A DNA stretch of 64,000 nt, taken from NCBI GenBank assembly GCA_026395995.1, contig JAPLXQ010000006.1:18983-82982 (forward strand), given 5' to 3'. Below are positions 40,063-43,125 of the stretch, in pieces. The notes beneath the pieces were generated by a model, which saw nothing but the letters and a program-made list of their open reading frames with translations, did not search any database and was not told the DNA's origin. The stretch is from Candidatus Nomurabacteria bacterium. GTDB lineage: Bacteria > Patescibacteriota > Minisyncoccia > Phycocordibacterales > UBA9973. Numbering within the stretch: the stretch's first letter is position 1; each line of letters opens with the position of its first letter. The translations under genes were made by a program, and so were the position numbers.

Positions 40063-40293
40063 TTATTTTAAAAGAAAACCTTTAATATCTTTTTCTTGAG
40101 TTAAAGTAAGATAATATGCAAATGCACAACTTGCTACATTTCTATTATAACCATGTTCGTTGCCATCTTTTACGCAATGCACTACTTTAAAAGTAAGGAA
40201 TAAAATAACTAAAACAATAATTAAAGCAAAGGACAAAAGTAACTTAATCCATAATTTAACTTTTTTTATTTTTTTAATTTCTTGATTTTCCAT
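40063..40293 (-). CDS. Small single-TM protein MENQEIKKIKKVKLW..., inserted between atpD and atpC; paralogue of 42793..43125
   Basis: Shares an identical nine-residue N-terminus (MENQEIKKI) and about 26 identical nucleotides at its 5' end with the ORF at 42793..43125. Confidence 0.45.
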   Translation of the reverse strand: MENQEIKKIKKVKLWIKLLLSFALIIVLVILFLTFKVVHCVKDGNEHGYNRNVASCAFAYYLTLTQEKDIKGFLLK

Positions 40294-40304
40294 AATTTAA
40301 TTAT

Positions 40305-40356
40305 AACGCCCCCTTCCCGCCCGCCATCGCTACGCTCAGGCGTTAGCGGGCGGGCA
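40305..40356. repeat. GC-rich nested hairpin (CCGCCCGC ... GCGGGCGG with inner GCTACGC tcag GCGTTAGC) in the atpD-downstream intergenic region
   Basis: Read directly; a strongly GC-rich island in AT-rich spacer DNA. Confidence 0.4.
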
Positions 40357-40372
40357 TATAAAACTAATAATA

Positions 40373-41743
40373 CTACAAAGAACCTTTCATGTAAAAATCC
40401 TGTTCAGCTTTTTCATCATGCTTACCATCAAGGATTTCACGGAATGAACGGATTGTATCTGCGAGCGGGACGTATTGGCCTGGAGCTCCGGTGAATTGTT
40501 CAGCGACGAAGAATGGTTGTGAAAGGAATTTCTGCACCTTACGAGCACGAGCGACGAGCTCACGGTCGGCATCGGAAAGTTCTTCGATACCGAGGATGGC
40601 GATGATGTCTTGGAGGTCTTTGTATCTTTGGAGAACTCTTTGCACTTCACGAGCGACTTCGTAGTGCTCTTTCCCGACGATGTTCGGATCGAGGATCGTA
40701 GATGATGAGTCGAGCGGATCAACAGCCGGATAAATACCGATTTCAGAAAGTGAACGGTTGAGCACCACAGTAGAGTCAAGGTGAGAGAAAGTAGTAGCTG
40801 GAGCTGGGTCTGTGAGGTCGTCAGCTGGCACGTAGACGGCTTGGACAGATGTCACCGAGCCTTTGTCGGTACTCGTGATACGTTCTTGCAAATTTCCCAT
40901 TTCTGTCGCGAGAGTCGGCTGGTAACCCACGGCACTAGGAATACGGCCGAGGAGCGCAGAAACTTCGGAGCCTGCTTGAGTGAAGCGGAAGATGTTGTCG
41001 ATGAAGAAGAGGACGTCCTTGCCTTCTTGGTCGCGGAAGTGTTCCGCCATTGTGAGTCCTGAGAGAGCCACACGAAGACGAGCACCTGGCGGTTCGTTCA
41101 TTTGTCCGAAGACCATCGCCACTTTGTCGAGCACTTTGGAATCTTTCATTTCGTGGTAGAGGTCATTACCTTCACGAGTACGCTCTCCCACACCTGCGAA
41201 TACAGAATATCCGCCGTGATTTGAAGCGATGTTGTGGATGAGCTCTTGGATGACGACAGTCTTGCCCACACCGGCACCTCCGAAGAGACCGACTTTTCCT
41301 CCTTTGAGTACAGGACAGATAAGGTCGATGACTTTGATACCAGTTTCGAGGATTTCAATCTTTGTCGATTGAGAGACGTAGTCTGGAGCTTTGCGGTGAA
41401 TTGGTGACCGTAACCCTGCACCGCCCTCCTTCGCTAAAGTTCCGGCGGGTAAATCATCTATAACTTCACCGAGCACATTGAAAATTCTTCCAAGTGTTTC
41501 CTTACCGACTGGTACGGAAATAGGCTTGCCAGTGTTTACCACTTCTTGCCCGCGAGCGAGGCCGTCGGTAGTGTCCATAGCGACCGTGCGCACCACTCCT
41601 CCGCCGATATTCTGCTCGACTTCGAGGATGATTTTCTTCTCGCCATTCATGACCTCAAGCGCGCTGTAAATCTCTGGGACTTCTCCTTCGAAAGCCACAT
41701 CCACGACCGGTCCGATTATTCTTTTTATTGTTCCTTTGTTCAT
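40373..41743 (-). CDS. atpD: F-type ATP synthase beta subunit
   Basis: Walker [16 protein letters not shown]-like region and overall F1-beta sequence ([10 protein letters not shown]..., [18 protein letters not shown]). Confidence 0.95.
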
Positions 41744-41807
41744 AATAATTTTTTTAATAATGTTTATAATAATTTTTAATTTAATCCATTCGACAAGCTC
41801 AGGACTT

Positions 41808-42783
41808 TTAGCTTACACTTGCCATACCTGCACTGATCTCGGAAATTTCTTGGGTGATGCCGGCTTGGCGGGCTTTGTTGAATACGAGGGTGAGGTTGTC
41901 GATCATTTCTCCTGCCGCCTCGCTCGCATTCTTCATGGCTACCATTCGGGCCGACTGTTCCGAAGCTCCGGATTCGAGGAGCATTTGATATATCTGCATC
42001 CTGATCAATTTCTCGGCTAACATTTCTATCAATTTGTTCGCATCGCCTTCGATGAGGTATGGGATTGAGTTCCCCTCCCCCTTCGCTAAGGGGGAGGTTG
42101 GGAGGGGGTGCTGATTCTTCACCCCACCTCGGTCCTCCCCTTGGCTAAGAGGAGGAGGAACTAGCCCATCAATCATATCTTTCATTTCTTGTCTCGATAT
42201 CGGTAATAGATTTCTCACATTCGGCTTCTGAGTGAGTGCCGAGACGAAGTCGGTATAAACGACGAAGACTTCTTTGTATGTTCCCTTTTTGTATTCATTT
42301 AAAATCAGAGCTGAAATAGGGTTTACATTTTGTATTGAAATATTTACTGGCAACGATGATATTCTGTCCGATTTTTCGCATCGCATGGTCGCCCTTTTTG
42401 CCGATACTTATTATGTCAAAGGTGCCCTTTGACATATCTGTTTGATTTTGTAGACGTCCGACGTCTACAGATTTAATCAATTGCATCGCTTTTTTGATAG
42501 CTTGAGCATTGTAGCCACCGCAGAGTGAGCCGTTTGAAGTGATGAGGACGATCAAAGTCTTGCCTTCTTTTGGAGATTCAAAAAATACATTTTTCACTTC
42601 ATCCAATTTCCCCGACAAAGAAGTCAAAAGTTCCCAAGAGTATCCTGCATATGAACGCGAAGCGAGTGTCGTCGCCACCGCACGACGCATCTTCGAAGCC
42701 GCCACCAGCTCCATCGCCTTGGTGATCTTTTTTGTATTCTTGATACTCTTTATTCGGTTTTTGATTTCTTTTGTTGATGCCAT
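41808..42783 (-). pseudogene. atpG: F-type ATP synthase gamma subunit (atpG), split into two overlapping ORFs (42295..42783 and 41808..42386) by a +1 frameshift at the A4 run near 42328-42331. The downstream half also carries a ~90-bp GC-rich palindromic insertion. This is either a sequencing indel or a genuinely interrupted gene
   Basis: The N-terminal ORF carries the gamma N-terminus (MASTKEIKNRIKSIKNTKKITKAMELVAASKMRRA). The C-terminal ORF carries the gamma C-terminus ([44 protein letters not shown]). Hand translation shows that deleting one A from acaaaatg restores ...[15 protein letters not shown].... Confidence 0.8.
42072..42158. repeat. Composite GC-rich palindromic repeat inserted in frame in atpG: two head-to-head copies of a ~40-bp unit (CCCCTCCCCCTTCGCTAAGGGGGAGGTTGGGAGGGGGTGC and its approximate reverse complement CACCCCACCTCGGTCCTCCCCTTGGCTAAGAGGAGGAGG)
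   Basis: Read directly. Each unit is an 8-bp GC stem with an 8-nt loop plus a TTGGGAGGGGGTGC tail. Translated on the minus strand it yields the Pro/Gly-rich linker [32 protein letters not shown] inside gamma. Confidence 0.7.
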
Positions 42784-42792
42784 AAAAATTAA

Positions 42793-43125
42793 TTACATAA
42801 GTGGTTCAAATGCTATCCAGTGCGGGAAAAAATATCTAAAAATAAAATATAACAAGGGCATCAAAATTACCAAAGTATTAAGAATTTTATATTTTAATAT
42901 AGAACCCCCAATTTCCTTTTTAAAGTAGGATATTTTTTTAAAATCTGCTACACACTTAATTAAAGAGAAATAAGATAATACTAGACCGACAATTACATAC
43001 AATATAACGTTAGCGGAATCGAAGAAATATAAACTTATAACATAATAAATTATCCACGCACAAAGTAAAAATATGAAACTAGCAATCTTATCTTTATATA
43101 TTTTTTTAATTTCTTGATTTTCCAT
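42793..43125 (-). CDS. Small multi-TM membrane protein MENQEIKKIYKDK..., inserted between atpA and atpG; paralogue of 40063..40293
   Basis: Same 5' end (ttatggaaaatcaagaaattaaaaaaat) and N-terminus as the 40063 ORF; three hydrophobic helices. Confidence 0.45.
   Translation of the reverse strand: MENQEIKKIYKDKIASFIFLLCAWIIYYVISLYFFDSANVILYVIVGLVLSYFSLIKCVADFKKISYFKKEIGGSILKYKILNTLVILMPLLYFIFRYFFPHWIAFEPLM

Follow-up and report, generated by a model that had tools for sequence, protein, structure and literature searches.

Small hydrophobic proteins outside the core enzyme are well known from the operons that encode F-type ATP synthase: AtpI and AtpZ form widely conserved families and are co-transcribed with the atp genes from a position upstream of atpB. 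Other non-atp open reading frames (ORFs) in atp operons also have precedents, and the F1 gene cluster of Rhodopseudomonas blastica reportedly contains a 'gene X' that separates the gamma gene from the beta gene. More generally, free-standing homing-endonuclease genes of the T4 seg/mob type insert between conserved genes, and orphan small membrane proteins are abundant in the genomes of the Candidate Phyla Radiation (CPR). Here we describe two orphan ORFs, sA and sB, that lie inside the atp operon of a Candidatus Nomurabacteria bacterium and begin with a nearly identical sequence. The analysis covers a stretch of 64,000 nucleotides of contig JAPLXQ010000006.1 (hereafter the window), and all positions refer to it.

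Comparison with the described systems places sA and sB close to several of them without an exact match to any. Like AtpI and AtpZ, they are predicted small membrane proteins encoded together with atp genes and lie outside the eight core subunits, but they sit within the F1 half of the operon, belong to no family and are absent from close relatives. With 'gene X' of R. blastica they have in common that a non-atp frame interrupts the atpHAGDC order; however, the junction and the phylum differ, there is no demonstrated sequence relation, and here two ORFs share a start module. The T4 seg/mob genes resemble them in being inserted between conserved genes, and the analogy extends to GIY-YIG and PD-(D/E)XK nuclease genes in the same junctions of relatives and to a tract of low divergence around one such insert, but sA and sB have no nuclease domain and are predicted membrane proteins. 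Type I toxin-like peptides are shorter than 60 aa, have a single transmembrane (TM) helix and are paired with an antisense RNA, whereas sB has 76 aa, sA has 110 aa and three TM helices, and the region contains no Rfam match. Literature searches on insertions in atp operons of CPR bacteria or Nomurabacteria returned nothing specific. We consider it probable, though well short of certain, that sA and sB are real, lineage-private passenger membrane genes located in insertion-permissive junctions of a CPR atp operon, and that a start module has recently been copied between them.

A start module common to sA and sB

The window contains a complete F-type atp operon on the minus strand (39.6-46.9 kb), whose canonical gene order was established from ORFs, Pfam matches and tblastn comparison with relatives. 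Two junctions in its F1 half are filled by ORFs that do not belong to this order: sA (42793-43125, minus strand, 110 aa) lies between atpA and atpG, and sB (40063-40293, minus strand, 76 aa) lies between atpD and atpC. The coordinates and junctions that an earlier note on this DNA had given for them are correct, with neighbouring genes backed by Pfam. The spacing is compact, as sA starts 4 nt past the atpA stop codon and ends 9 nt short of the atpG ATG, while 3 nt separate the sB stop codon from the atpC ATG. The sole canonical terminator of the operon sits past atpC (39568-39598), and none was detected between atpD and atpC. Judged from this arrangement, both ORFs are located within the predicted atp transcription unit and are co-oriented with the atp genes. 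In the NCBI annotation they appear as hypothetical proteins (sA, NT068_01230; sB, NT068_01210).

The earlier note had reported that the two ORFs share a 26-nt head, ATGGAAAATCAAGAAATTAAAAAAAT. This sequence occurs exactly twice in the window, even when three mismatches are allowed, and shuffled sequences gave an expectation of zero. The repeat proved longer than described: it spans 43 nt, identical at 40 positions (93%), and consists of a 5-nt leader, the ATG and the following 35 nt of coding sequence. Copy A (43088-43130, minus strand) comprises the leader and the first 38 nt of sA (MENQEIKKIYKDK); copy B (40256-40298, minus strand) comprises the leader and the first 38 nt of sB (MENQEIKKIKKVK). 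The two head-bearing ORFs are separated by 2.8 kb. When the start regions of the window were compared two by two (15,576 pairs), the head pair was the lone outlier with 40/43 identities, the runner-up having 28/43 (mean 14.7, standard deviation 3.3). Similarly, in alignments with the starts of 76 likely genes the head reached a score of 37 against its partner and no more than 18 against any other. The shared head is, on these comparisons, the product of a copying event and not a generic start context. The note had proposed looking for further ORFs headed by MENQEIKKI; within the window there are just the two.

The differences between the copies are informative. The three mismatches between them lie in codons 10, 11 and 12, and each alters an amino acid, while the first ten codons of sA and sB contain no synonymous differences. 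Past the head the similarity drops to the level of chance. BLASTP aligned sA and sB over residues 1-30 only, and with the head excluded shuffle tests of local similarity were not significant for either nucleotides (p=0.11) or protein (p=0.14), with semi-global alignments giving z=1.2-1.7. Whole-length paralogy of sA and sB is therefore not supported by these alignments, which leave the 43-nt start module as the only sequence in common; the description of the two genes as paralogous holds for the head (40/43 identities, none expected by chance) but not for the bodies. A head without synonymous differences in front of unrelated bodies fits the recent copying of a short start module better than an old gene duplication. 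On the simplest reading, one ORF would have received the start module of the other in a recent event, either partial duplication or short-patch gene conversion.

Two other relationships were considered and rejected. A MAFFT alignment with 67% column identity suggested that sB could be a truncated sA, but this is the level given by two sequences of 75% A+T, in keeping with the non-significant shuffle tests. By eye, MENQEIKKI also resembles the N-terminus of AtpG, MA(NQ/ST)KEIKNRI, as well as the start of atpC; as a duplicated 5' end of atpG or atpC, however, the head gave alignment scores of at most 14, inside the background of the 76 gene starts (maximum 18).

Essentially no RNA structure is predicted at the starts of sA and sB (-2.6 kcal/mol for copy A and -0.3 kcal/mol for copy B), and no Shine-Dalgarno sequence is evident at sA, sB or the neighbouring atp starts.

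Predicted membrane proteins without relatives

The gap DNA that contains sA and sB has only 23-25% G+C, a composition in which stop codons are frequent. We scored the longest sense-strand ORF in shuffles of each gap that preserved dinucleotides, and none of 20,000 reached the 110 codons of sA or the 76 codons of sB (mean lengths 30 and 24 codons, respectively). As supporting evidence, a codon model built from 40 native long ORFs and applied after removal of the head placed the annotated frame ahead of shifted frames by 0.20 (sA) and 0.35 (sB) nats per codon, compared with 0.28 for atpH in the same test. From these measures, sA and sB are very probably translated genes. The earlier note had named two observations that would count against its proposal, namely relatives without these ORFs and a shared head lacking conserved coding potential downstream; relatives do lack the ORFs, but the downstream coding potential is real.

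Both products are predicted to be small alpha-helical membrane proteins, and the hydrophobic helices noticed earlier were borne out by hydropathy analysis and by AlphaFold2 models. Hydropathy places TM segments of sA at about residues 14-32, 40-58 and 81-99, with a Lys-rich N-terminus and a Lys-rich loop (59-80); this charge layout agrees with the positive-inside rule and an N-in topology. sB has one TM segment (~16-34) followed by a tail of 42 residues with three Cys. Single-sequence AlphaFold2 models are all-helical for both proteins, with helices at 2-34, 37-68 and 74-99 in sA (pLDDT 70) and at 5-46 and 53-74 in sB (pLDDT 82). Foldseek comparison of these models with the PDB returned no structural neighbour (all E>1).

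Homology searches found no relatives of either protein. In a word-indexed search of 5.8 billion clustered proteins sA and sB each matched only themselves, and an exhaustive HMMER search of 1.84 billion representatives with sA likewise returned only the query. Neither was assigned to a family in Pfam, NCBIfam, PHROGs or PADLOC. Their best Pfam scores were sub-threshold and to unrelated families (DUF2705, 15.5 bits; Spo7, 13 bits), and relaxed thresholds (E<=0.1 for Pfam and E<=1 for NCBIfam, including the ATP-synt_I and AtpZ-type families) gave no match. The Pfam families of the core F-type subunits were not matched either, and all eight core subunits (a, c, b, delta, alpha, gamma, beta and epsilon) are supplied by other genes of the operon. 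Neither sA nor sB has the look of a conserved ATP synthase subunit. Searches of phage records by tblastn gave no match. A back-translated pattern of the head found two chance matches in metagenome contigs, one at the start of a ScpB gene and one out of frame in a transketolase gene, and none in viral contigs. One tblastn match of sA within the window (4334-4624, E=7e-4 without composition correction) was rejected as an artefact of TM composition, as it covers an unrelated hydrophobic ORF (106 aa) that lies upstream of a gene for a PBP2-like protein.

The ORFs are also missing where they would most readily be found. We collected 80 related atp loci through AtpD, and tblastn of sA and sB over these loci gave no match. 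Both ORFs are absent from the closest relatives, whose AtpD is 82-88% identical, and in two of these (L002 and L003) the atpA/atpG gaps measure 12-13 nt. The best reading of these comparisons is that sA and sB are private to this lineage.

The F1 junctions and their setting

We surveyed the atpA/atpG, atpG/atpD and atpD/atpC junctions in related operons. In CPR-like loci 17 of 86 F1 junctions (~20%) measure 200 nt or more, compared with 4 of 137 (~3%) in the others sampled, and no non-CPR locus sampled had a junction of this size at atpA/atpG or atpD/atpC. The statement that canonical atp operons carry no genes at these positions is thus accurate for the sampled non-CPR loci but not for CPR relatives. 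The cargo-bearing relatives, found among loci L001-L028 and L053, contain a varied set of genes. At atpA/atpG, L001 encodes a 106-aa orphan with three TM helices, of the same size and layout as sA but without sequence similarity to it. L027 has a GIY-YIG gene at atpA/atpG and a 69-aa TM orphan at atpD/atpC, and L018 carries a 126-aa orphan TM protein. Others belong to known families: a PQ-loop/SemiSWEET-like protein in L014, a lycopene-cyclase-domain (Lycopene_cyc) protein together with an MNT/HepT pair in L007, PD-(D/E)XK (PDDEXK_3) nuclease genes at two junctions of L013, and glyoxalase- and carbonic-anhydrase-like genes on the opposite strand in L025. These cargos are mutually unrelated. 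Comparison of atp synteny therefore yields two answers: sA and sB are absent from relatives, but the same CPR junctions often hold other genes.

Of the systems compared here, this junction cargo (L001, L007, L013, L014, L018 and L027) shares the location of sA and sB and is often, like them, a small AT-rich co-oriented membrane ORF that fills the gap; it differs in having no similarity to sA or sB and in including several members of known families (PQ-loop, Lycopene_cyc, MNT/HepT, GIY-YIG and PDDEXK_3).

One insert could be followed between strains. The L001 orphan (4738-5058 of its locus) has a 91%-identical variant in L083, a Logan contig (1380-1700). The frame is open in both strains, with a ratio of nonsynonymous to synonymous divergence (dN/dS) of ~0.4. 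Synonymous divergence (dS) is 0.115 in the orphan and 0.127 in the first 50 codons of atpG, compared with 0.24-0.83 in blocks of the flanking atpA 3' end and 0.53 further into atpG. This pattern suggests a recent recombination tract around the L001/L083 insert. Unrelated cargo at the same junctions, together with this low-dS tract, indicates that the F1 junctions of CPR bacteria are permissive and prone to exchange. On the best reading of these sequences they would be insertion sites of that kind, which sA and sB fit as species-private passengers.

The base composition of the operon is a mosaic. G+C content at third codon positions (GC3) is 0.24 in sA and 0.13 in sB, in keeping with a genome background of 0.20-0.28, against values of 0.44-0.50 in atpA, atpG, atpD and atpC; atpB, atpE, atpF, atpH, the ribosomal-protein genes and all other genes of the window fall at 0.20-0.28. 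The contrast indicates that the inserts and the F1 genes that flank them have different histories. In relatives GC3 is uniform throughout the atp operon, and the F1 block described here is anomalous compared with all of them; its F1 half may, as this suggests, have been recently replaced from a relative of higher G+C content. The search for a donor of the GC-rich block among the fetched relatives found none, the best near-full-length nucleotide identity of atpA and atpD being 75-80%.

The other genes of the operon are arranged as follows, all on the minus strand and all identified by ORF, Pfam or tblastn evidence. The 5' half contains the Fo and stalk genes atpB (45988-46878), atpE (45652-45894), atpF (45077-45526) and atpH (44655-45071). 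These are followed by atpA (alpha, 43130-44641), directly upstream of sA, then atpG (gamma, 41808-42783), atpD (beta, 40373-41743), which precedes a hairpin and sB, and atpC (epsilon, 39598-40059), downstream of sB. The terminator right after atpC is an intrinsic-terminator-like hairpin that appears bidirectional. Upstream of atpB, a tRNA gene (47122-47193, minus strand; Rfam, 71.7 bits) falls within a listed ORF of 118 aa (46880-47236). The true small hydrophobic ORF at this AtpI/AtpZ-like position is probably ~46880-47110 (76 aa), which matches no Pfam or NCBIfam family.

Between the atpD stop codon and sB we located the GC-rich hairpin that had been noted previously (40316-40354, minus strand). 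It has an 11-bp G+C stem and lacks a T-tract, its 86-nt context folds with -31 kcal/mol, it is present in a single copy in the window and it was not flagged as a terminator; Rfam contains no family for the hairpin or for the inserts. Six relatives (L002, L003, L005, L006, L007 and L008) have stable, mutually unrelated stem-loops or long palindromes right after atpD, some of 145-237 nt. A structured element after atpD thus seems to recur in the clade, and the stem-loop is accordingly a frequent feature of this position, not a component of an sB cassette. Shortly before the hairpin and sB, a promoter-like site (40367-40395, minus strand; TTTACA-17-TATTAT, 10/12 matches) overlaps the atpD stop codon (40373-40375). 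By its consensus match it could serve as an internal promoter for sB and atpC.

The atpG gene is present as two frameshifted parts, 42295-42783 and 41808-42386. The N-terminal part (162 aa) covers Pfam positions 1-137 and the C-terminal part (192 aa) positions 141-284; the ORFs overlap at 42295-42386, and the C-terminal part has an ATG of its own at 42386. The frameshift region is ~5 codons shorter than in relatives L001-L007. It could reflect a real deletion, leaving a pseudogene or a split gamma subunit, or an assembly error. In the variable loop of atpG (~42060-42175) lies an in-frame G+C-rich palindromic element of three hairpins (-58 kcal/mol). The gene for an FAD-linked oxidase (51384-53141) contains a 51-nt copy of ~92% identity, also in frame, at ~52340-52400. 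The element looks small, palindromic and mobile, and would either tolerate coding sequence or target it.

Alternative explanations and significance

In the scenario that we favour, sA and sB would occupy two junctions of the F1 half as passenger genes, and the start module of one ORF (the leader, the ATG and the first 12-13 codons) would have been copied onto the other. Re-initiation or coupling would account for translation, which would begin in A-rich, unstructured sequence that has no Shine-Dalgarno motif, and the proteins would be inserted into the membrane N-in, with the Lys-rich head in the cytoplasm. As a by-product, ribosomes may be kept on the mRNA across the inserts, so that atpG and atpC are still translated. 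Several observations weigh against this scenario. Neither flanking repeats nor above-background similarity to the atpG and atpC starts turned up that could account for the presumed copying of the head; the search for the head in this genome covered the 64-kb window. The codon-frame test favours any open frame and carries supporting weight only. T-rich and AT-rich DNA favours hydrophobic codons, which makes the membrane character of the proteins partly compositional. Finally, atpG is frameshifted in the assembly, and the operon could be decaying and the inserts tolerated junk.

This last possibility, that the inserts are non-functional AT-rich DNA in a decaying operon and the ORFs incidental or not-yet-stopped remnants, is unlikely in our judgement, although we would place it first among the alternatives. 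It draws on the shortened, frameshifted region of atpG, the palindromic element inserted in the same gene, the orphan status of both ORFs and a hydrophobicity that could be compositional. However, none of the shuffles produced ORFs of the 110 or 76 codons that fill the two gaps, sA and sB both lie on the operon strand 3-9 nt from their neighbours, and their charges follow the positive-inside pattern. Moreover, atpA, atpD, atpC and the Fo genes are intact, and the frameshift may be an assembly error or mark a viable split gamma whose C-terminal part starts at the ATG at 42386. Alternatively, sA and sB could be lineage-specific accessory, assembly or regulatory components of F1Fo, functional analogues of AtpI and AtpZ that are co-expressed to meet the complex in the membrane, with the head as a common cytoplasmic docking segment. 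The position inside the operon, a compact spacing compatible with coupled translation, an identical cytoplasmic head on two predicted membrane proteins and the fact that both ORFs are clearly kept open all suit this idea, as does the retention in L001 and L083 of a three-TM ORF of like size and layout at atpA/atpG. It is weakened by the absence of the ORFs from all close relatives despite AtpD identities of 82-88%, by the lack of homologues among the billions of proteins searched and of any Pfam match to ATP-synt_I or AtpZ-type families, by the dissimilarity of sA and the L001 ORF, and by the unrelated cargo, nucleases and toxin-antitoxin pairs included, in the same junctions of relatives. The head identity, in reaching synonymous sites, points to recent copying and not to conserved protein function. 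The earlier note had raised an accessory-subunit role; we found no positive evidence for it, with relatives lacking the ORFs and both proteins being orphans, and we rank it next, as improbable.

More doubtful still is a family of mobile cassettes that integrated twice, with the 43-nt head as a cassette end or recombination site. Two otherwise different bodies behind the same 5' boundary module, a composition unlike that of the flanking genes, the frequent invasion of CPR junctions (by GIY-YIG and PD-(D/E)XK nuclease genes among others) and the recombination tract around the analogous L001/L083 ORF are what such a cassette might leave. But there are only two copies in 64 kb, the head scan gave two chance matches in metagenomes and none in viruses, and the proteins are unmatched in phage records. 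In addition, the inserts were found to have neither a common 3' end nor terminal repeats, inverted or direct, no recombinase was seen nearby, and the head falls within coding sequence. The original suggestion of duplication or repeated insertion of a cassette is accordingly upheld in so far as the head was copied, but not as to a cassette, for which no further copies were found in the window, the metagenome and viral contigs or phages, and no terminal repeats or recombinase were seen. The least probable explanation is an assembly artefact, in which a chimeric contig or mis-joined repeats created the ORFs or the head. The source is a metagenome-assembled genome from short reads, the operon is a striking compositional mosaic and atpG is frameshifted; against this, the genes follow the canonical order throughout, a chimeric contig could arise only through four crossovers exactly at gene boundaries, and the inserts hold intact, gap-filling ORFs. 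NCBI has the same proteins, from the same 89.5-kb contig.

In summary, the preferred interpretation of sA and sB as passenger genes offers a clear case of two ORFs that lie 2.8 kb apart and are unrelated except for a copied start module, and the atp F1 junctions appear as insertion hot spots across the CPR, with small membrane proteins, nucleases and toxin-antitoxin pairs among their contents. If the passengers were to bind ATP synthase, or to mark recombination of the atp genes, this would bear on energy metabolism and operon evolution in the CPR. A bolder proposal, to which we assign a low probability on a par with that of an accessory role, is that genes may be born within this essential operon when a start module, unstructured, lacking a Shine-Dalgarno sequence and equipped with a Lys-rich cytoplasmic anchor, is copied before an AT-rich spacer and yields a second translated membrane protein, that the products may be species-restricted partners of ATP synthase that dock through the head, or both. 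Were gene birth or a new partnership to prove true, the atp junctions of CPR bacteria would provide a natural system for the attachment of new proteins to an ancient machine and for the origin of small membrane proteins.

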